Assembly (NCBI GenBank): GCA_040385525.1
Contig: JAZKHE010000005.1
Location: forward strand, 96,910-160,909
Direction of reading: 5' to 3'
From: Bacteroidota bacterium
Lineage (GTDB): Bacteria > Bacteroidota > Bacteroidia > UBA4408
DNA length: 64,000 nucleotides
Shown: positions 189 through 28,196 of the stretch, piece after piece
Layout: each line of letters opens with the position of its first letter
How positions within the stretch are numbered: the first letter of the stretch is position 1
Translations under genes and position numbers: made by a program
Notes under the pieces: model-generated
The model's input: the letters and a program-made list of their open reading frames with translations, nothing else
Database searches by the model: none
Told to the model about the DNA's origin: nothing

Positions 189-803
189 TTAAAATAATCC
201 GTTTATTTCTGCATCAATTTTATTAATAACTGTTCCTAAGCCTTCTGGTGTTTCGGCAAAGTTTACAGTATCAACATCAATTATTAGCAATTTACCTTGG
301 TTGTAGGTAGAAATCCAAGCTTCGTAACGCTCGTTTAATCTTTTTAAATAATCTAAACGAATTGAGTTTTCGTAATCTCTACCTCGTTTTTGAATTTGAT
401 TTACCAAGGTTGGAACCGATGCACGTAGATAAATTAATAAATCGGGTGATTGAATAAAACCATCCATCAAATTGAATAACGAAAAATAGTTTTCAAAATC
501 GCGGGTGGTCATTAAACCCATTGCATGAAGGTTTGGCGCAAAAATAAATGCATCTTCATAAATGGTTCTATCTTGAATAACGTTTTTACCACTTTTACGA
601 ATTTCCATTATCTGTGTAAAACGAGAGTTAAGGAAATAGATTTGCAAGTTAAACGACCAACGTTGCATGTCTTCGTAAAAGTCATTTAGGTAAGGATTGT
701 CGTCTGCATCCTCAAAATGTGCTTGCCAGTTATAATGTTTTGCTAAAAGAGTTGTTAAGGTTGTTTTTCCAGAACCAATGTTCCCTGCTACTGCTACATG
801 CAT
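189..803 (-). CDS. deoxynucleoside kinase (dAK/dCK/dGK family)
   Basis: 204 aa. P-loop GNIGSGKTT at the N-terminus. Length and motifs typical of the deoxynucleoside kinase family. Confidence 0.8.
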   Translation of the reverse strand: MHVAVAGNIGSGKTTLTTLLAKHYNWQAHFEDADDNPYLNDFYEDMQRWSFNLQIYFLNSRFTQIMEIRKSGKNVIQDRTIYEDAFIFAPNLHAMGLMTTRDFENYFSLFNLMDGFIQSPDLLIYLRASVPTLVNQIQKRGRDYENSIRLDYLKRLNERYEAWISTYNQGKLLIIDVDTVNFAETPEGLGTVINKIDAEINGLF

Positions 804-1674: not shown

Positions 1675-3195
1675 TTATGAGTTTTTTATTTGTTGTAAAA
1701 TTTCTTCTATAAAAATTCGGTTGTTCGATAAACGTGGCACTTTGTTTTGTCCGCCTAGTTTGTTTTTTGCTTTTAGCCAGTTATAAAATGTATGTTGAGG
1801 TACGGATATAATTTCTGGATTTTGCAAAATCATATCTTTATACCTTTTCGCTTCATAGTCCGAATTTAGTGATTTTAATGCATTATCTAACATCGTGCCA
1901 AAAAATTCTATGCTATCGGGTTCTTTTTCAAACTCAATTATCCATTGGTGTGCACCTTGTTTACTATTACTGGTGTATATAGGAGCTGCAGAATAATCAG
2001 TAATTACAGCCTGAGTTTTATCGCAAGCAATTTTGAGTGCTTTTTCTGCATTGTCAATTATTAATTCTTCGCCAAACGCATTTATAAAATGTTTTGTTCT
2101 GCCCGTAATTTTTATTCTGTAAGGTGTAAGTGAAGTAAATTCTACTGTATCGCCAATTTTGTATCGCCACAAGCCTGCATTGGTACTTATTAAAATGGCG
2201 TAATTTATTCCTTTTTCTACTTCGTTAATTGTATATGTTTTTGGGTTGTTTGAGTTTATTTCTGCAACAGGAATAAACTCATAAAAAATTCCATAATCTA
2301 ACATTAAAAGTAATTCGTTGCTATTTAAAACATCTTGTATTCCAAAAAAACCTTCTGAAGCATTATAGGTTTCTAAATATTGCATTTCTGTGCTTGGAAT
2401 TAAAGCTTTAAATTGTTCGCGGTAGGGATCAAAATTTATTCCTCCATGAAAAAAAACTTCTAAGTTTGGCCAAACTTCTGATATGTTTTTTTTGCCTGTT
2501 TTTTTAAGAATGTGTTTTAATAAAAGTAGCAACCAACTTGGTACTCCGGCTAAGCTAGTAACGTTTTCGTTTATAGTAGATTCTGCAAGTTTTTCAATTT
2601 TACTTTCCCACTCATTCATTAATGCAATTTCTCTACTTGGAGTTCTAACGGCTTCAGCAAGTAGCGGTAAATTTTGTAAAATTATTGCCGACAAATCGCC
2701 CGTATAAAATTCATTTTCTCCATCAGAAAAATATTGATGACTTCCACTCAAGGCTAAATTTTTTCCTGTAAATAATTTAGCATCTTCAACACTATTGCAA
2801 TAAATGGAAAGCATATCTTTTCCGCCTTTTAAGTGGCATTCTTCTAGGCTTTCGGGACTAACAGGAATAAATTTACTTTTATCGGAAGTGGTGCCCGAGG
2901 ATTTTGCAAACCATTTAATTTCTGATGGCCACAAAATATTTTTTTCTCCTTTTTGAATTCTTTCTACAAAAGGTTTAACATCATCGTAATCTTGTATTGG
3001 GACTCTGTTTTTAAAAGAATTATAATTGTCGATTGATGTATAATTATATTGTTTGCCCCAAAGCGTGTCTTTAGAAGTATTTATTAATTTATTAAACACA
3101 TCTTGTTGCACTTCTCCAGGATATTTCATAAAAAGCTCAATTTGATGCATGCGCTTTTTTATTACCCAAGTTGCTATGGAATTTATTATTGGCAA
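1675..3195 (-). CDS. GH3 auxin-responsive promoter family protein (acyl-adenylate-forming enzyme superfamily)
   Basis: 506 aa. Overall resemblance to the bacterial GH3-family proteins common in Bacteroidota. Start is 2 nt after the stop of the preceding gene on this strand. Confidence 0.7.
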   Translation of the reverse strand: MPIINSIATWVIKKRMHQIELFMKYPGEVQQDVFNKLINTSKDTLWGKQYNYTSIDNYNSFKNRVPIQDYDDVKPFVERIQKGEKNILWPSEIKWFAKSSGTTSDKSKFIPVSPESLEECHLKGGKDMLSIYCNSVEDAKLFTGKNLALSGSHQYFSDGENEFYTGDLSAIILQNLPLLAEAVRTPSREIALMNEWESKIEKLAESTINENVTSLAGVPSWLLLLLKHILKKTGKKNISEVWPNLEVFFHGGINFDPYREQFKALIPSTEMQYLETYNASEGFFGIQDVLNSNELLLMLDYGIFYEFIPVAEINSNNPKTYTINEVEKGINYAILISTNAGLWRYKIGDTVEFTSLTPYRIKITGRTKHFINAFGEELIIDNAEKALKIACDKTQAVITDYSAAPIYTSNSKQGAHQWIIEFEKEPDSIEFFGTMLDNALKSLNSDYEAKRYKDMILQNPEIISVPQHTFYNWLKAKNKLGGQNKVPRLSNNRIFIEEILQQIKNS

Positions 3196-3248
3196 AATAA
3201 ATTTTTTGTTTGTTACAAAGTAAAACTAATTTTTAAAAGTACAAAATT

Positions 3249-4505
3249 TTATGCTTTTGTTTTTTCTTCCCAAATAGCAGCTAAATTAACTATTGTAGCT
3301 ACTGCTTTTTCCATGTCTTGAACAGAAACCCATTCGTATTTAGAATGAAAAGCATGCTCACCAGCAAAAATATTTGGGCAAGGCAAGCCCATAAACGATA
3401 AGCGCGAACCATCAGTTCCGCCTCTAATACTAGTTAGTTTGGGCTCTATTCCAGTTCTTTTTACCGCTTCAATTGCATAGTCTGCAACTTCTGGATGTTT
3501 ATCTAAAACATCTTTCATATTTCTGTATTGTTCGGTTACAATAAAATCGAAACTTGATTTTTTATACGTTGAAATTATTTTTTCTACAATTTTATTTAGC
3601 TCATCTTCTAAGTGATTTAAGCCTTTTGTGGTAAAATCTCTAATTATAAATTTAATTTCAGCTTTTTCTATCGTTCCGCTAATTGATGTAGGGTGGATAA
3701 AACCTTCTTTTTGTTCTGTTGTTTCGGGCGACATTGTATTTTTAGGTAGTTGTGCTATAATTTCAGATGCAATTTTTATTGCGCTTTCCATTTTGTTTTT
3801 TGCAAAACCAGGGTGCGTGCTTACACCATAAATAGTAACACTTACGCCGTCAGCTGAGAAAGTTTCGTTTTCGATATGACCTAATTCTTCGCCATCAATA
3901 GTGTATCCAAAATCTGCATTTAATTTTTTTATGTCGAGCATTTCAACACCTCTTCCAACTTCTTCATCTGGTGTAAACAAAACACGAATGTCGCCATGCT
4001 TTATTTCTGGATTTTTTATTAAATGATGCATAGCATCCATTATCTCAGCAACACCAGCTTTGTTATCTGCGCCCAACAAAGTGGTTCCGCTTGCAGTAAT
4101 AATATCGTTACCAATTTGTTTTAATAGTGAAGGATGTTTTTTAGAAGATAAAACAATACTTGTGTCGTCGGGCAAAACAATATCGTCGCCATTGTAATTG
4201 TTGTGTACAATTGGTTTTACGTTTTCGCCACTACAATCGGGCGATGTATCCATGTGCGAACAAAAACAAATAGTAGGAATTTTTTTTGAAGAATTGCTTT
4301 TTAATGTTGCAAAAACATAACCATGCTCATCCATGTGAGTATCGGTTAAACCCATTTCTAAAAGTTCAGCAACAAGAATTTTAGCAAGATTTTTTTGCTT
4401 TTCAGTACTGGGGAAAGAGGTTGAATCTGGATTAGATTGTGTATCAATAGTAACGTAGTTTAAAAAACGTTTTGTTACTGTATTGGTGTAGTTTTGAAGT
4501 GACAT
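3249..4505 (-). CDS. pepT: peptidase T (tripeptide aminopeptidase, M20B)
   Basis: 418 aa. M20 family metal-binding motifs (HMDT...D...GADNK..EE). Size typical of PepT. Confidence 0.8.
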   Translation of the reverse strand: MSLQNYTNTVTKRFLNYVTIDTQSNPDSTSFPSTEKQKNLAKILVAELLEMGLTDTHMDEHGYVFATLKSNSSKKIPTICFCSHMDTSPDCSGENVKPIVHNNYNGDDIVLPDDTSIVLSSKKHPSLLKQIGNDIITASGTTLLGADNKAGVAEIMDAMHHLIKNPEIKHGDIRVLFTPDEEVGRGVEMLDIKKLNADFGYTIDGEELGHIENETFSADGVSVTIYGVSTHPGFAKNKMESAIKIASEIIAQLPKNTMSPETTEQKEGFIHPTSISGTIEKAEIKFIIRDFTTKGLNHLEDELNKIVEKIISTYKKSSFDFIVTEQYRNMKDVLDKHPEVADYAIEAVKRTGIEPKLTSIRGGTDGSRLSFMGLPCPNIFAGEHAFHSKYEWVSVQDMEKAVATIVNLAAIWEEKTKA

Positions 4506-4559: not shown

Positions 4560-5276
4560 TTATTTTTGATGTTTGCTAATTATTTTTTCAAAGTCTTCTT
4601 TAGAAATATAACCTACGTGTTTCCATACTTCTTTTTTGTTTTTGTATAAAAACAAAGTAGGTAAGGCTTCTATTTGCATTGCTTTTGCAATGGCTTCATT
4701 TTCGTCAGCATTTATTTTATGAATTGCTAAAACTGCTTTTTTTTCTTCGCTCATTTCAGCTAAATAGGGCGCCATTTTTTTGCATGGACCACACCAAGGC
4801 GCATAAAAATCAATTAAAACTAAACGTTCATCATTTAAAAAATTAGCGTATTCTTTTTCGTTCATGCCTTTTGATTTTTCTGCAACAGGCAGAACTACTT
4901 TTTTGTTGGCGTTTTTCCATTGCATAATTCCGCCTTGCATATTGTAAACTTCTTTAAAACCTAAATCAATAAGTTTTTGGCTAGCGGCAGCGCTTCTTCC
5001 GCCGCTTAAACAATAAACAAATACTGGTTTTGTTTTCTCAAGTTTGTTGGCTTCTGTTACAAAACTATCACCATTCCAATTTATGTTTTTTGCATTTTCT
5101 ATGTAACCCGATGCAAATTCTCCTTCGGTTCTTACGTCAATTAGCTGAGCGTTAGTTGTTGCATTTACTTTAGTTTCAAACTCATTATTTGGAATGTTTA
5201 AAAAACTATTTTGTGCAGTAACAAAACCAATTTGCGCGACTAGTACTAATAATAAAATGCGAAGTGAGTTTTTCAT
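4560..5276 (-). CDS. secreted rhodanese-thioredoxin fusion protein
   Basis: 238 aa. Signal peptide, rhodanese active-site loop CLSGGRS, and a C-terminal thioredoxin fold with WCGPCK. Confidence 0.75.
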   Translation of the reverse strand: MKNSLRILLLVLVAQIGFVTAQNSFLNIPNNEFETKVNATTNAQLIDVRTEGEFASGYIENAKNINWNGDSFVTEANKLEKTKPVFVYCLSGGRSAAASQKLIDLGFKEVYNMQGGIMQWKNANKKVVLPVAEKSKGMNEKEYANFLNDERLVLIDFYAPWCGPCKKMAPYLAEMSEEKKAVLAIHKINADENEAIAKAMQIEALPTLFLYKNKKEVWKHVGYISKEDFEKIISKHQK

Positions 5277-6165: not shown

Positions 6166-6460
6166 GTTTTTTAAGTTTATAATGCAAAGTTACAGTGTCC
6201 TTATCTTAAATTAAGGTACAATTGTTACACATCTTTTAAGTTTTGTGCATTTTTTCTAAAATGACCTAGAATGTTAAATAAATTTAATGTTATTGTTTTT
6301 TGAAACATTTGAAACATTTTAGCGTTTCACTAATACATTCTTTTTAAATTATAATAGTGAATTTTAAATTGATAGTCAAGCAAAAAAGCAAAAATGTTGA
6401 AAACTATTTTTCTTGACTTGTAACGATGAGTTGTTTATTTTTGTCTACGAAACCTAAAAA

Positions 6461-23481: not shown

Positions 23482-24498
23482 ATGAAAAAATACATTGTTC
23501 TTGGTTTTGCTTTGTTTTCAATTAACGCTTTTGCACAGCAAGATACTGCAGAAGTTGAAGATTTTAGCATGTATGCCGATATGGATGCATCGCCTAGTAA
23601 AACCTATTGCACATCAAAAATTATTGGTAACGCGCCATCAAAATTAGTTTCGTTAGGATTTGATTTTGAAGGACCTTATGATATGAAAATAGGGAATGGT
23701 GGTGTAAATAATGAAGTTGCGTACAATTATGGATTGCGTGGAAGTGCAAATTTTCCGGTAATATCTAATACAAAATGGTTGGTAAATTTAGGTGTAAATT
23801 ATTTAGATCATAAATATGCTTTTAAAAATCCATCAGCTTTAAGCAATTTGTTTACTCAATCTCTTTCTGAAACTGGTTTAAGAAGTATGGGGGCAAACTA
23901 CACCATTTTTAAGCCTTTAAACGAAAAACATTTTTTGTTGCATCAAAGTAATTTTGATTTGAATGGAGATTATAGTTTCACCAATTTTCAAAGCGTTAGT
24001 ACAGTAAAATTTCAAACAGCAGTTTTGTTTGGTTGGAAAAAACACGACCGCAGGCAATTTGCAATTGGTGCGAGCAGAACATATAGAGGCGGTGAATCTT
24101 TAATAATTCCTGTTGTTTTATACAACTATACTTTTCCTAATCGTAAGTGGGGAATTGAAGCACTTGTACCTGCAAGAGCTGCGGTTAGATACACCATTAA
24201 TTCGCGAAACATTATTTTAGGCGGCTTTGAATTAGAAGGTGCTTCGTATTATTTAGGTAATATGCTAAAAAATAATGCTACAATTCCTTATTCGCAATTG
24301 GAGTTACGCCGTTCTGAGTTAAGAAATAAAATTACGTATGAGTTTTCGGTTTATAAATTTATTTGGATGTCGCTGCAAGTTGGTTACATCTACAACTACA
24401 AGTTTAAGGTAGATGATGGCGGAAGTACTCCAGTTTACCACAATAAACTAAGTAGTCCGTTTTATGCTAATGTTTCAATAAATTTGGTTTCGCCATAA
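23482..24498 (+). CDS. hypothetical outer-membrane/secreted protein
   Basis: 338 aa. Signal peptide, beta-strand-like alternating pattern. No catalytic motif. Confidence 0.4.
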   Translation: MKKYIVLGFALFSINAFAQQDTAEVEDFSMYADMDASPSKTYCTSKIIGNAPSKLVSLGFDFEGPYDMKIGNGGVNNEVAYNYGLRGSANFPVISNTKWLVNLGVNYLDHKYAFKNPSALSNLFTQSLSETGLRSMGANYTIFKPLNEKHFLLHQSNFDLNGDYSFTNFQSVSTVKFQTAVLFGWKKHDRRQFAIGASRTYRGGESLIIPVVLYNYTFPNRKWGIEALVPARAAVRYTINSRNIILGGFELEGASYYLGNMLKNNATIPYSQLELRRSELRNKITYEFSVYKFIWMSLQVGYIYNYKFKVDDGGSTPVYHNKLSSPFYANVSINLVSP

Positions 24499-24535: not shown

Positions 24536-24576
24536 AAATGGAAAAATATGGAATTCAATTCCAAATTTTTCCATTT
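24536..24576. repeat. 41-bp imperfect palindrome (copy 1)
   Basis: AAATGGAAAAATATGGAATT-C-AATTCCAAATTTTTCCATTT. Nearly identical to 25738-25778. Confidence 0.6.
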
Positions 24577-25725
24577 TTAAAGTAAATATTCTCTCCAATT
24601 TTGTATTTCAAAACCGTTGCTTCGATTTTGATTTTGAGTGCCAGCATAAAGAATTAAAGCTTTTTTATTTCCACTTAATTTATTCCAATAATCAATATTT
24701 TTAAAAAACTCGGCGGTAATGGTTTTGCCCGATTTTATTTCTATTGGCAAAATGCTGTTTTTTTCTTCTGATAAAATATCTACTTCGTGACCAGTTTTAT
24801 CGCGCCAATAATACAGGTTAATAGGCGAGCCCAAATTTGTGCGTTGTTTTATTAATTCTGTTACCAACATTGTTTCAAAAATAGCACCACGCAAAGGGTA
24901 ATTGGCTATTTGTTTTGCGTTTTGTATTCCTAATAAAGAGCAAACTAAAGCTGTGTCGTAAAAATAAAGTTTTGGTCGTTTTACAATTGTTTTGTTGTAG
25001 TTTTTATAATAAGGTTTTAGCAGATAAATAATGTAACTGCTTTCTAAAATTCCTATCCACGATTGTATCGTTTTTACATCAACACCCGTTTCAATAGAAA
25101 ACGAACTATAATTTAATTCTTGTCCGCTTCTACCTGCTAATAAACGCATAAAGCGCTCAAACAAAAGCAAATCGCTAATGTTTTTTATTTGCCGAACATC
25201 GCGTTCAATGTATGTTTTTATGTAGTTAGCGCACCAATCGCTAGCCGGAATTTTTTGATCGTAAATTGGAGGATAAAATCCTTTAAACAAAATTTCGTCG
25301 TCGGTTTTTGCTAATAGTTTTTTGCTGTTTAATTCGGCAACAGAAAATGGTAATAAACTTAAATAACCAACTCTACCAGCTAAAGATTGCGATATGGTTT
25401 CTTGTAATAAAAAATTGTTAGAACCAGTTAGAATAAATAGTCCTTTCTTTTTAGAATTATCTAAAATCTCTTGCAGGTACGAAAAAAGTTCGGGTGTGCG
25501 TTGTACTTCGTCTAATATAGCTCCTTGTGGGAATTGCTCTAAAAAACCTCTTGGGTCGGACAAAGCAAAATTCCGAGTGTCTAAATTTTCGAGAGAAATG
25601 TAAGGTTTGGTTTTAAAAAGTTTTTTAACCAAAGTTGTTTTGCCCGATTGCCTTGCGCCAACAACAGCTACAGCTTTAAATGTTGCTGCAAGTTTTAATA
25701 GCCTTTTCTCTGCAATTCGGTTTAT
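24577..25725 (-). CDS. AAA+ ATPase, DUF4143/COG1373 family
   Basis: Walker A VGARQSGKTTL near the N-terminus, DUF4143-like C-terminal region. Likely start is Met23 of the ORF (MINRIAEKRL), outside the flanking palindrome. Confidence 0.7.
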   Translation of the reverse strand: MNRIAEKRLLKLAATFKAVAVVGARQSGKTTLVKKLFKTKPYISLENLDTRNFALSDPRGFLEQFPQGAILDEVQRTPELFSYLQEILDNSKKKGLFILTGSNNFLLQETISQSLAGRVGYLSLLPFSVAELNSKKLLAKTDDEILFKGFYPPIYDQKIPASDWCANYIKTYIERDVRQIKNISDLLLFERFMRLLAGRSGQELNYSSFSIETGVDVKTIQSWIGILESSYIIYLLKPYYKNYNKTIVKRPKLYFYDTALVCSLLGIQNAKQIANYPLRGAIFETMLVTELIKQRTNLGSPINLYYWRDKTGHEVDILSEEKNSILPIEIKSGKTITAEFFKNIDYWNKLSGNKKALILYAGTQNQNRSNGFEIQNWREYLL

Positions 25726-25737
25726 CATAAAACAAAT

Positions 25738-25778
25738 ATATGGAAAAATTTGGAATCCAATTCCAAATTTTTCCATTT
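25738..25778. repeat. 41-bp imperfect palindrome (copy 2)
   Basis: ATATGGAAAAATTTGGAATC-C-AATTCCAAATTTTTCCATTT. Confidence 0.6.
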
Positions 25779-25783
25779 TGTTT

Positions 25784-26587
25784 TTACTCACAATCTTTTT
25801 CGGGAGTACAAACTTTGCCTTCTGTAATTTCTAAATCAGAAATTTTATTTTGTGTTTTCCATTCGCTAAACGATTTGTTTAGTACATCTAAAAAAGCACT
25901 ATCGGGTTGTGCACCAGACACGCCGTATTTTCTATTAAAAACAAAAAACGGAACACCTTGCACACTAATTTGTTGTGCCATTGCAATATCGTTTTTTACT
26001 TCGGTGCTATACGCATCGCTGTTTACTACTTTGCTTACCTCTTCTTCGTTTAAACCAATTTCTTTTCCTAATTTAATTAGTGTAGCGGCATCACTAACAT
26101 CAGCGCCTTCGGAAAAATAAGCTTTAAAAAAACGTTCTTCTGCTTCGTCGCCCAAGTTGTGTTTTTTAGCTAACTGAATTACTCTGTGTGCATCAAACGA
26201 ATTGGCAACAACTGCAATATCAAAATTGTAAGTTAAGCCAGCTTCTTGCGCCATACTAATTACGTTTTTGTGCATTGCTTCTGATTGTTGTTTGCTAATG
26301 CCTTTACGTTGCGCTAAATATTCGTACACATTTATTTTTTCGGTTTGTTTGGGAATGCTTGGGTCTAGTTGATAGCTGTGCCACTCTAACTCAATGTGTT
26401 TTGCAAAAGCAAATTGCGAAAGCGCTTTTTCGTAATGACGTTTGCCTATATAACAAAACGGACACATTATATCCGACCAAATTTCTACTTTCATTTTTTC
26501 TGATATCATTCTTGTATCTTTTTTAGTTTGCGCTTGAATATTAAATGAGAAAGCAATTAAAATGAATAGGGCTTTTGATATGTGCAT
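25784..26587 (-). CDS. DsbA-family (FrnE-like) thiol:disulfide oxidoreductase, secreted
   Basis: DIMCPFCYIGK active site. Probable start MHISKALFIL... (signal peptide) at 26587, immediately after the stop of the upstream LRR gene. Confidence 0.7.
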   Translation of the reverse strand: MHISKALFILIAFSFNIQAQTKKDTRMISEKMKVEIWSDIMCPFCYIGKRHYEKALSQFAFAKHIELEWHSYQLDPSIPKQTEKINVYEYLAQRKGISKQQSEAMHKNVISMAQEAGLTYNFDIAVVANSFDAHRVIQLAKKHNLGDEAEERFFKAYFSEGADVSDAATLIKLGKEIGLNEEEVSKVVNSDAYSTEVKNDIAMAQQISVQGVPFFVFNRKYGVSGAQPDSAFLDVLNKSFSEWKTQNKISDLEITEGKVCTPEKDCE

Positions 26588-26588
26588 T

Positions 26589-28196
26589 TTAGTTGATATA
26601 TGAACATCCAGTAATTGGCCATTTCTTTTCCATGTAATTAGCGTCATCAACTTTAATTGTTTTTAGAAGTTTATTGCCCTCAGTTTTAAAAATTTCGAGA
26701 TTAATATTATTGTTATTTTTAATGGATAAGAATTCGAGTTTATTGTAACTACAATCTAGATTAATTAACTTTTTGTTTTTCTCTAAATCAAGTTCAATTA
26801 GCATGTTTTCTGCACAATTTAAGGCTTCAAGGTTTAAAAAAGCGCTTACATCTATAAAGGTTAAAGGATTTTTTTTACAGTTTAATCTAACTAGATTTTT
26901 TGAATTACTCAGTTTTATTAAATTAACATTGTTGTAGCTAAAGCTCAATGATTCTAATGATGTGCAATTCTGAATATCCAAATAACTAATGTTATTAAAG
27001 TCTGCACTTACAAATTGCAGGTTTTTATTTTTAGATAAATCCAAATTAGTTACTATATTATTATTACACCCCAATTTTTTCAACAATTTGTTGTTGTTTA
27101 AATCTAAAAATTTTATATAATTATTAGCACAGGTTAATACAAATAGTTTTTTGCAGTTTTTTACATTAAGCTCTTGTATCAAGTTGTAATTACAAGAAAT
27201 ATATTCAAGTTTTTTGTTTTTTGAAACATCTAATTGTTTTAAATGGTTCATTGAGCATTCTAAATATTTAAGATGGTTTAATTTTTTTATATCTAATTCT
27301 TCAAGTTGATTTTGAAAACAATGTAATTCTTCAAGTTTTAAGTTGTTTTGTAAATTAATACGTGATATTTTATTAGAGTTGAAATAAAGTAACTTAAGTT
27401 TGGTATTATTTTCTACGTTCAAATCACGTAGTTTATTATTATAACAAACTAAATAATACAGATTTTTGTTATTTGTTGTGTTTAACTGTGAGATATTGTT
27501 TTCAGCAAGTTCAAGTTTAAGCAAATTTATATTGTTTGATACGTCTATTACTTCTATTTGATTTTCGCGACACGAAAGATATTGTAATTTTTTTTGTTTA
27601 GAAAAATTTATTTCTTTTATTTGGTTGCGGTCGCAATTTAATAGTGTAGTTTCTCCTAAATCTGATAATTCAAGAGAAGTTAGTTGATTTCCTGCACAAC
27701 AAATAATTACTAAACTATCATTTAAGTTTAACTCATTTATGATGTTTGATGTGCAATCTAAATATTTTAAATGAGAATTGTTTTTTGTATTTAAAAAACG
27801 CAAGCCATTATTTCCACACGTTAAAGAACTTAGATTGGTTGCTTCTTCCAAATGTATTTCTGCAATATAATTCCAAGAGCAGTCTAGAGATGTTATGTTT
27901 TTAAAAAAGTTTATACCTGTAAGACTTTCAATTTGCAAACTTGAAATATTAAGTGCACCATTATAATTTTCTGCTTCAAAAACATCAATTTCGTTATCAC
28001 AATTTAAATTGATTTCGCCATTATTAAGCAAAGCACTTTTAAAATTTGTGTCTGGAATATAAACTATTTGAATATTATTTTCTGTTTGTGCATAGAGTTC
28101 AAGTCTTGCAAAAACAAATAATAAAGCGCATGCAAAGATTATTCGGTAAAATTTATTCATACAGTATAAAAAAATTGTTTGCCACTTGCGCAACAA
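26589..28196 (-). CDS. leucine-rich repeat (LRR) secreted protein
   Basis: 535 aa. Signal peptide followed by about 20 tandem about 22-aa LRR units (L.xL.C..N.L..LD...N..L). Confidence 0.7.
   Translation of the reverse strand: MLRKWQTIFLYCMNKFYRIIFACALLFVFARLELYAQTENNIQIVYIPDTNFKSALLNNGEINLNCDNEIDVFEAENYNGALNISSLQIESLTGINFFKNITSLDCSWNYIAEIHLEEATNLSSLTCGNNGLRFLNTKNNSHLKYLDCTSNIINELNLNDSLVIICCAGNQLTSLELSDLGETTLLNCDRNQIKEINFSKQKKLQYLSCRENQIEVIDVSNNINLLKLELAENNISQLNTTNNKNLYYLVCYNNKLRDLNVENNTKLKLLYFNSNKISRINLQNNLKLEELHCFQNQLEELDIKKLNHLKYLECSMNHLKQLDVSKNKKLEYISCNYNLIQELNVKNCKKLFVLTCANNYIKFLDLNNNKLLKKLGCNNNIVTNLDLSKNKNLQFVSADFNNISYLDIQNCTSLESLSFSYNNVNLIKLSNSKNLVRLNCKKNPLTFIDVSAFLNLEALNCAENMLIELDLEKNKKLINLDCSYNKLEFLSIKNNNNINLEIFKTEGNKLLKTIKVDDANYMEKKWPITGCSYIN

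Follow-up and report, generated by a model that had tools for sequence, protein, structure and literature searches.

Palindromes at a PDC-S01-type ATPase-nuclease gene of a Bacteroidota bacterium: a family-wide upstream element and an occasional downstream copy

Why does a gene for a putative ATPase-nuclease stand exactly between two near-identical palindromes? The question is raised by a 64,000-nucleotide stretch of contig JAZKHE010000005.1 (assembly GCA_040385525.1; Bacteroidota bacterium, lineage UBA4408), referred to below, at its full length, as the window. The palindrome upstream of the gene (copy 2) was found to be a hallmark of one orthologous Bacteroidota family of AAA_14-wHTH-PD-(D/E)XK proteins (wHTH, winged helix-turn-helix; PADLOC candidate PDC-S01). 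It is interpreted here, with moderate confidence, as a gene-specific cis element of this family, i.e., a promoter operator, of which the downstream palindrome of the window (copy 1) would be an occasional duplicate.

The palindrome pair and the family-wide upstream element

Bracketing of the gene by near-identical palindromes, reported in a preliminary description of this DNA, was confirmed: the stop codon abuts copy 1 and the start lies 10 nt from copy 2. In register, the copies are 95% identical over 40 nt (24538-24577 vs 25740-25779; spacing 1202), somewhat above the value of about 90% given before. Arms of 20 bp, described earlier for each copy, were found for copy 1 (20 nt, 95% complementary); copy 2 consists of a perfect 17-nt core, the arms being extendable to 26 nt at 85%. 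Together the copies form a direct (also inverted) repeat and are the longest hairpin-type palindromes of the window; a search with up to 3 mismatches gave no third site in the 64 kb, and dinucleotide-preserving shuffles gave such sites in 0 of 100 cases. The pair is real and cannot be put down to chance. The same dsbA and DUF6268 gene ends and both palindromes, with the unit in the same orientation, were present in L008, a close relative (ATPase 98% identical in amino acids); an assembly artefact is unlikely because L008 was assembled independently.

Genome scan for the upstream element: a degenerate palindrome was searched in one genome per species; at least 119 stretches from 118 assemblies were obtained, and the matches listed were almost all from Bacteroidota. 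Among these matches 122 palindrome copies were counted: 67 directly 5' of a homologue (57-76% identity), 34 solo copies with no gene, and 21 too near the block edge. The hundreds of unrelated intergenic copies considered in the preliminary description did not appear; 117 of the 118 assemblies had one locus each among the matches listed, including single matches in the Dyadobacter sequences L027, L068 and L083 (6.6-7.9 Mb). The only genome with two loci in this set was that of Parapedobacter soli KCTC 12984 (L066, occupied; L116, solo); behind the solo come a one-off -7 box and the same spacer (acaattcatta.attt), a sign that a second gene copy may have been lost.

A second sample, of 80 metagenome loci (49-74% identity), was chosen by protein and independently of the palindrome; a palindrome score of at least 13 within the 90 nt before the start was found in 71% of 75 of these loci vs 0.8% of 500 control genes. 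The half-site is GGA-nnn-AT-nn-GGAAT in a dyad of 33-41 bp, the two GGA blocks being spaced by 10 nt; the GGA..AT..GGAAT blocks are conserved across orders, remoter members have co-varied versions (e.g., GGACAAATCCGGAAT-N3-ATTCCGGATTTGTCC), and palindrome types follow clades. Neighbouring genes vary between lineages, and the ATPase gene is the sole constant partner of the palindrome. No true match was found in 2.9 M viral contigs (sole match: chance, GC-rich), and Rfam gave sub-threshold generic hairpin matches only. The match in L010 (Pseudorhodoplanes) was a chance similarity in GC-rich coding DNA. Some contigs with the element had been binned in metagenome-assembled genomes (MAGs) labelled Akkermansia (L034), Bifidobacteriaceae (L029) and Limnohabitans (L065); these labels are probably binning errors, since L065 is 90-92% identical to contigs labelled Spirosoma/Cytophagales.

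Promoter geometry: the Bacteroidota box has been placed at -12 to -5, 4-5 nt from the transcription start site (PMC6847099), and leaders shorter than 10 nt occur in only about 4-6% of Bacteroidota mRNAs (PMC6847099, PMC7366714, PMC9723704). Among 84 unique family promoters the exact TAnnTTTG box was present in 62 and a one-off box in 18; the distance from the G of the box to the ATG was 4 nt in 49 cases and 3-5 nt in all. The family geometry agrees with the published one and, the G standing 4 nt before the ATG, the transcript is predicted to start at the A of the ATG (leaderless). Copy 2 spans about -50 to -12 of the predicted window promoter; the family dyad would cover about -46 to -14 and thus lie outside the mRNA, as far as can be read from the sequences. 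From palindrome core to ATG there are 12-13 nt in 41 loci and 21-23 nt in 16 loci (among the matches listed), the -7 box following the core directly or 9-12 nt beyond it; since these spacing variants are not multiples of 3, the palindrome is considered non-coding and the extended open reading frames (ORFs) of 402 aa not real. The palindrome is retained with a co-directional upstream neighbour (32 loci) and with a divergent one (27 of 59 loci), which argues that termination of the upstream gene is not its main purpose.

Dyads of paralogues: a second DUF4143 subfamily (31-49% identical to the window protein) has a dyad of its own, yTATGyAAAT-N17-ATTTrCATAr, that ends exactly at the ATG, shows compensatory changes between species and occurs both on chromosomes (Dyadobacter paralogues) and on Runella and Emticicia plasmids. 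In place of the family dyad, L089 carries two copies of TACTCAATATATTGAGTA (18-bp palindromes); L164 and L017 carry a composite dyad, GGAAAAGTGT...ACACTTTTCC; the Allochromatium plasmid copy (L213) carries a dyad with 12-nt arms, TTACAGATTGAA-N9-TTCAATTTGTAA. Homologues on plasmids and phages do not exceed 49% identity, and those of plasmids carry other dyads. Paralogue-specific dyads at the same place favour a gene-specific operator.

Proposed function: the dyad would be an operator that controls expression of a potentially harmful nuclease. Its likeliest binder would be the ATPase's own product, acting through the predicted winged helix, because no other protein accompanies the site consistently; that each genome has one site, that the neighbours change and that the dyads are family-specific makes it the most economical candidate, and the single locus per genome (among the matches listed) argues against a regulon. 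The copy at the window stop codon would be an occasional duplicate of the same element and possibly a second binding site. Both window hairpins may also terminate transcription, copy 2 that of dsbA and copy 1 that of the ATPase gene and of the convergent DUF6268 gene, and together they would insulate the gene. As a by-product, 40-bp direct repeats would be available, and recombination between them could delete the gene, with one palindrome left, or amplify it. Of the twin operators proposed in the preliminary description, the upstream one is the better supported (family-wide, at a fixed distance to the -7 box and ATG); the twin state is restricted to a minority of loci (about 8-10%).

The ATPase-nuclease gene, its annotation and its neighbours

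The true start was assigned to ATG 25728-25726 (conserved N-terminus MINRIAEK) and the stop to TAA at 24577-24579; coordinates of all features are collected in Table 1. Pfam on the product: AAA_14 (4e-29) and DUF4143 (1e-49), nothing else; PADLOC model PDC-S01: E 1e-100; NCBIfam: nothing meaningful; PDB sequence search: no relative. The motif EVD...IEIK is readable in the DUF4143 domain. DUF4143 has been placed in the PD-(D/E)XK superfamily, function unknown (PMC3424549); PDC-S01 reportedly ranks fourth in abundance among the candidate defence genes of prokaryotes, validation pending (PMC12988326). In the AlphaFold2 (AF2) model (pLDDT 72 overall, 80-92 in the C-terminal half) the predicted wHTH sits between the ATPase domain and the PD-(D/E)XK fold; comparison of this middle domain with wHTH proteins of the ArsR/SmtB/MarR type gave a probability of 0.9-0.99 but an E value of only about 0.02-0.08.

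Table 1. Coordinates of the gene, its palindromes, its promoter box and its neighbours in the window, and of paralogue dyads in other loci
Feature	Position	Strand	Sequence	Remarks
Downstream palindrome (copy 1)	24536-24576		AAATGGAAAAATATGGAATT-C-AATTCCAAATTTTTCCATTT	abuts ATPase stop codon
Upstream palindrome (copy 2)	25738-25778		gene strand: AAAATGGAAAAATTTGGAAT-TGG-ATTCCAAATTTTTCCATAT	5 nt past dsbA stop
Bacteroidota -7 box (TAnnTTTG)	25733-25740	minus	TATATTTG	overlaps last palindrome bases; G 4 nt before ATG
ATPase-nuclease gene	24577-25728	minus		383 aa + stop; AAA_14, predicted winged helix, DUF4143 PD-(D/E)XK nuclease-like
dsbA-family oxidoreductase gene	25784-26587	minus		upstream neighbour, co-directional with ATPase gene
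DUF6268 outer-membrane-type protein gene	23482-24498	plus		neighbour, convergent with ATPase gene
Paralogue dyad, L030	~3170-3208		yTATGyAAAT-N17-ATTTrCATAr
Paralogue dyad, L081	~2440-2476		yTATGyAAAT-N17-ATTTrCATAr
Paralogue dyad, L215	~364-400		yTATGyAAAT-N17-ATTTrCATAr
Paralogue dyad, L216	~356-394		yTATGyAAAT-N17-ATTTrCATAr

The family start is often miscalled at an ATG inside the palindrome, by which 402-aa products with a spurious 16-aa extension are obtained (window 25729-25791, minus strand: MEKFGIGFQIFPYICF-M); the 404-aa ORF listed for the window is an artefact of read-through across the palindrome, and the plus-strand ORF at 25740-26120 is likewise palindrome read-through. Thousands of homologues are ~73% identical, and many of them are annotated with the 16-aa extension (MELFGIQFQIIPYIYI-M and similar; P0008, P0016, P0018, P0031, P0036, P0038 and others). 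In the DNA of such loci it was confirmed that the extension is translated palindrome with mirrored changes. Exact-protein look-ups of the window ATPase and dsbA products gave no match, because the called starts differ; the dsbA product is a 100% match to the NCBI MAG protein P0121.

The surroundings are core genes: gldM, rsgA, dtd, DUF2147, DUF6268, dsbA, a leucine-rich-repeat protein gene, fabD and a Bax1-I family gene. A Pfam and neighbourhood check within the window found no recombinase, transposase or integrase near the ATPase gene, in line with the invertase-free neighbourhood described before, and no compositional anomaly was seen around the gene. The leucine-rich-repeat gene (26589-28196, minus strand) has a markedly low G+C of 0.22-0.26 at 26700-27600 vs about 0.32 for the window.

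Downstream copies, gene-less sites and alternative readings

Downstream copies: a clear downstream palindrome was present in about 8-10% of loci in both samples and in several deep lineages (window, L008, L020/L145, L034, L047, L053, L071, L146, L191, L205). It lies mostly 0-17 nt past the stop, giving units of 1202-1217 nt, and further off in L034 and L205; in the window, L008, L053, L146 and L191 it is of the locus's own variant type (deep-branching L191: GGACAAATC.GGAAT). Every observable downstream copy falls between convergent genes, copy 1 being located 38 nt beyond the end of the DUF6268 gene; a one-off -7 box after the downstream copy was found in the window alone. An origin of these copies as relics of a tandem second ATPase gene is not supported, no tandem same-family pair being found in about 200 loci. 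The window hairpins have U-rich tails and energies of -18.7 to -24.5 kcal/mol in all four strand foldings (copy 2 as RNA: -24 kcal/mol, z -5 to -7); a terminator scan flagged only the upstream copy, at 25740-25776, on both strands. By position and fold, copy 2 is plausibly a terminator of dsbA, and copy 1 plausibly one of both the ATPase gene and the DUF6268 gene.

Occupied and empty sites: the same flanks, either with the gene or with a lone palindrome, were found in three groups, i.e., Dyadobacter (nine occupied, about eight empty species), the L076 group (L076 occupied vs L035 and L104 empty) and an Algoriphagus-like group (L114, L065, L095 occupied vs L014, L024, L040, L048, L100, L111 empty). 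A gene-less site with unchanged neighbours and one remaining palindrome, which the preliminary description had proposed to look for, thus exists in these other lineages; at the window's own locus the nearest dsbA homologues (at most 70% identity, L128-L132) showed no synteny, L008 being the sole close relative. In Dyadobacter the gene seems to have descended vertically and to have been lost repeatedly: divergence of the ATPase follows that of the flanks, which indicates vertical descent, and no two empty sites have the same right-hand junction; the empty site of L081 retains the -7 box and ATGATAG, that of L125 a small ORF downstream of the ATPase position. Vertical inheritance together with irregular deletion junctions argues against site-specific excision. 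The Dyadobacter slot beside the palindrome is a small variable islet that holds the ATPase gene in some species; other toxin-antitoxin or defence-like genes were recognised by eye from translations in L027 (970-2250) and L125 (2000-4330), the alternatives being a SocA/Panacea-like protein of 190 aa accompanied by small ORFs, or a HipA-like protein of 337 aa together with a 216-aa partner.

Pseudogenes and repeats: L059 (~835-1448) and L087 (~151-426) are independent internal-deletion pseudogenes (aa ~35-214 and ~13-218). Both deletions end just before the wHTH segment TIQSWIGILESS, the codons of which, TGGAATGGGATTC, resemble the palindrome centre. In L114 (Algoriphagus sp. A40) the unit of palindrome and ATPase gene is bracketed by a 123-nt direct repeat (99%; 2869-2991 and 4232-4354) made up of the 3'-terminal 84 nt of the upstream gene and its GC-rich terminator hairpin; relatives have it in single copy, and it looks like a recent duplication or single-crossover integration. 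In L001, from another uncultured Bacteroidota lineage, a 54-nt direct repeat (89%; 4861-4914 and 6330-6383) flanks the unit. Integration targeted to tRNA genes was rejected, since no tRNA is located at either the L114 or the L001 repeats. What looked like an inverted palindrome flank in L024 relative to L065 is only the homologous palindromic extension. The solos L067 and L018 have a left flank 91-93% identical to that of the two-copy locus L146 and a right flank with a G+T run like that of the L146 downstream copy; they resemble the product of an L146-type recombination between copies, the right flank being too short as proof.

Several results weigh against the operator reading. A role as transcription factor is not known for AAA+-nuclease proteins of this kind. 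Covariation of the arms was strong in 48 distinct sequences (91% of cells paired; 15 of 18 pairs changed on both sides; 0 of 500 shuffles and no slid register came close), in an alignment that was centred on the palindromes themselves and so favours structure; the variable positions are almost all A/T, which gave the strand-asymmetry test (G.U vs A.C) little to score. Between L165 and its relatives L185, L186, L166 and L080 (86-88% aa identity) a double substitution is mirrored in both arms. Quasi-palindromes are known to mutate by templated correction, and this change looks more like hairpin-driven or templated arm homogenisation than like protein-DNA co-evolution; arm homogenisation at such a rate weakens covariation as evidence of selection. 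In L034, L047 and L145 the inner 5-mer is not the same in the two copies, although each copy is symmetric in itself. Solo palindromes persist at gene-less sites, often perfectly symmetric, and, among the matches listed, about 36 solos break from the occupied orthologue 0-10 nt from the palindrome. This clustering far exceeds random deletion, and the operator model alone is insufficient to account for it; the solos were found through a palindrome search, to which deletions that removed the palindrome are invisible, but the excess holds even when the scan's need of a retained palindrome is allowed for. The exact -7 box was kept in only 1 of 34 solos among the matches listed; solos as promoters left by intragenic deletions were rejected because the box is almost always gone. 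Recombination between two copies, palindrome-stimulated breakage and selection against promoter-bearing truncated genes are possible causes of the clustering.

That the palindromes are recombination sites is regarded as unlikely. In a passive version they would serve as direct repeats for deletion or amplification; in a strong version the unit would be a mobile cassette, excised as a circle of roughly 1.2 kb and integrated at a resident palindrome, the cutting being done possibly by its own PD-(D/E)XK nuclease at an extruded cruciform. Such sites would account for occupied and empty orthologous sites with one palindrome left (Dyadobacter, L076 and L114 groups), for breaks at the palindrome edge with loss of the exact -7 box and for the flanks of L067 and L018 that match the L146 copies; at least 7 lineages have compact two-copy loci, solos and downstream copies have similar flanks, and other direct repeats bracket the unit in L114 and L001. 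However, more than 90% of occupied loci have a single palindrome, the gene of Dyadobacter descends vertically and leaves differing right-hand junctions, L059 and L087 are ordinary internal-deletion pseudogenes, the window gene lies in a core-gene context with no recombinase or transposase nearby, viral contigs lack the palindrome, plasmid homologues are at most 49% identical with other dyads, and the solos came from a search blind to palindrome-removing deletions. Of the recombination module proposed earlier, the empty sites with a single palindrome are thus borne out; a site-specific cassette is not supported, given the Dyadobacter history and the missing recombinase, and keeps some probability for the two-copy loci.

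Distinctly unlikely is the reading of the palindromes as plain intrinsic bidirectional terminators or insulators that act as RNA hairpins, without a protein partner and not specifically tied to the ATPase. Stable stems with U-rich tails on both strands agree with it, as do the positions of copy 2 (5 nt from the dsbA stop) and of copy 1 between convergent genes; among the matches listed most solos also lie between convergent genes, with an A-run and a T-run on either side in 10 of 34, and symmetric covariation is what a hairpin predicts. A genome, however, has hundreds of terminators and only one such locus (among the matches listed); the conserved GGA..AT..GGAAT blocks would be superfluous for an element of structure only, the palindrome is kept beside a divergent upstream neighbour in 27 of 59 loci and at fixed spacing to the -7 box and ATG, and Rfam gave no match. 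A REP/BIME-like dispersed family (REP, repetitive extragenic palindrome; BIME, bacterial interspersed mosaic element), with the ATPase gene merely between two members, is very nearly out of the question: each copy is indeed an intergenic palindrome, but there are two copies in 64 kb, at least 119 stretches across 118 assemblies, single matches in the large Dyadobacter sequences, and 67 of the 122 copies listed directly 5' of one family. The REP-like terminators or insulators of the preliminary description therefore keep their terminator-like placement and shape and lose the REP part, there being one locus per genome.

It is quite improbable that the dyad is the target of a factor encoded elsewhere, or a protein-independent cruciform that senses supercoiling or replication stress and switches the gene on. 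Rapid mirrored arm changes between close relatives, perfectly symmetric gene-less solos and the genome with an occupied locus and a solo elsewhere (L066, L116) would fit; a dedicated trans factor for a single site throughout the phylum, with changing neighbours, is less economical than autoregulation, and paralogue-specific dyads would demand one factor each. A similarly small probability is given to a view that goes beyond the operator role, in which palindrome and ATPase-nuclease form a self-contained module and the palindrome would itself be, as DNA, a target of the protein, which would bind or cleave the extruded cruciform or else cut beside the dyad. A module of this kind would explain the breaks at the palindrome edge, the recurrent 1.2-kb two-copy units, the solos and the fast arm homogenisation.

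Known systems and meaning for the family

The preferred reading, a promoter operator bound by its own gene product, has its closest counterparts in the C-boxes of restriction-modification C proteins and in the operator palindromes of type II toxin-antitoxin systems, which are autoregulatory operators of toxic or defence genes. As there, the dyad overlaps the promoter of the proposed binder's gene, is single in the genome, travels with the gene and is paralogue-specific. In contrast to these operators, the present dyad is much longer (33-41 bp, with four GGA blocks), and an AAA+ ATPase-nuclease instead of a small helix-turn-helix protein is proposed to bind it, the binding itself being predicted; the predicted leaderless mRNA, the fast arm homogenisation and the occasional second copy at the 3' side are further differences. 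With archaeal Orc1/Cdc6, an AAA+ winged-helix protein that binds inverted repeats beside its gene, the window protein shares the AAA+ type, a predicted winged helix and the gene position next to such repeats, and the AF2 model showed weak whole-chain similarity to subunits of the origin recognition complex and to the archaeal AAA+ proteins PAB2304 and SSO1545; unlike Orc1/Cdc6 origins, the window locus has no AT-rich unwinding element and no skew change, and the protein has a nuclease domain.

Likeness to mobile or invertible systems is partial. In REPtrons, as in the window, a single-copy gene stands between two palindromes on which its product might act; REPs, however, number tens to hundreds per genome vs one locus here, the gene is not a RAYT (REP-associated tyrosine transposase) of the Y1 type (IS200/IS605-like), and most members of the ATPase family have the upstream copy only. 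Integron cassettes share with the present unit an imperfect palindrome at the unit boundary (attC), compactness and an empty site with one palindrome; unlike integrons, the window neighbourhood has no integrase and no attI, and no arrays occur in 200 loci. The palindrome here is 5' of the ORF and contains the gene's own promoter, whereas integron cassettes as a rule lack a promoter and have attC at the 3' end; its stems pair perfectly and lack the extrahelical bases typical of attC, and inheritance in Dyadobacter is vertical. As with hix/gix sites and Bacteroides invertons, two dyad-symmetric sites, inverted (and direct), flank a segment; unlike these, there is no invertase or enhancer nearby, and 41-bp perfect palindromes stand against 26-bp imperfect crossover sites. 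Inversion would switch nothing, since the segment carries the gene's own promoter.

The element is a new, well-defined cis motif of an uncharacterised, very common candidate defence gene. The palindrome signature is useful for finding PDC-S01-type genes and for annotating them correctly, which matters because many database entries carry the palindrome-derived 16-aa N-terminal extension. Solos and two-copy loci are markers of gene gain, gene loss and possible copy-number change in natural populations. Should the protein act on its own palindrome as DNA, PDC-S01-type genes would represent a new palindrome-delimited cassette that can be excised or amplified, or a defence nuclease licensed by a structure in its own DNA. 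For PDC-S01, which is without known mechanism or regulation (PMC12988326), the dyad is the first concrete, testable handle: it provides a defined DNA ligand for binding and cleavage assays, together with a predicted autoregulatory circuit.

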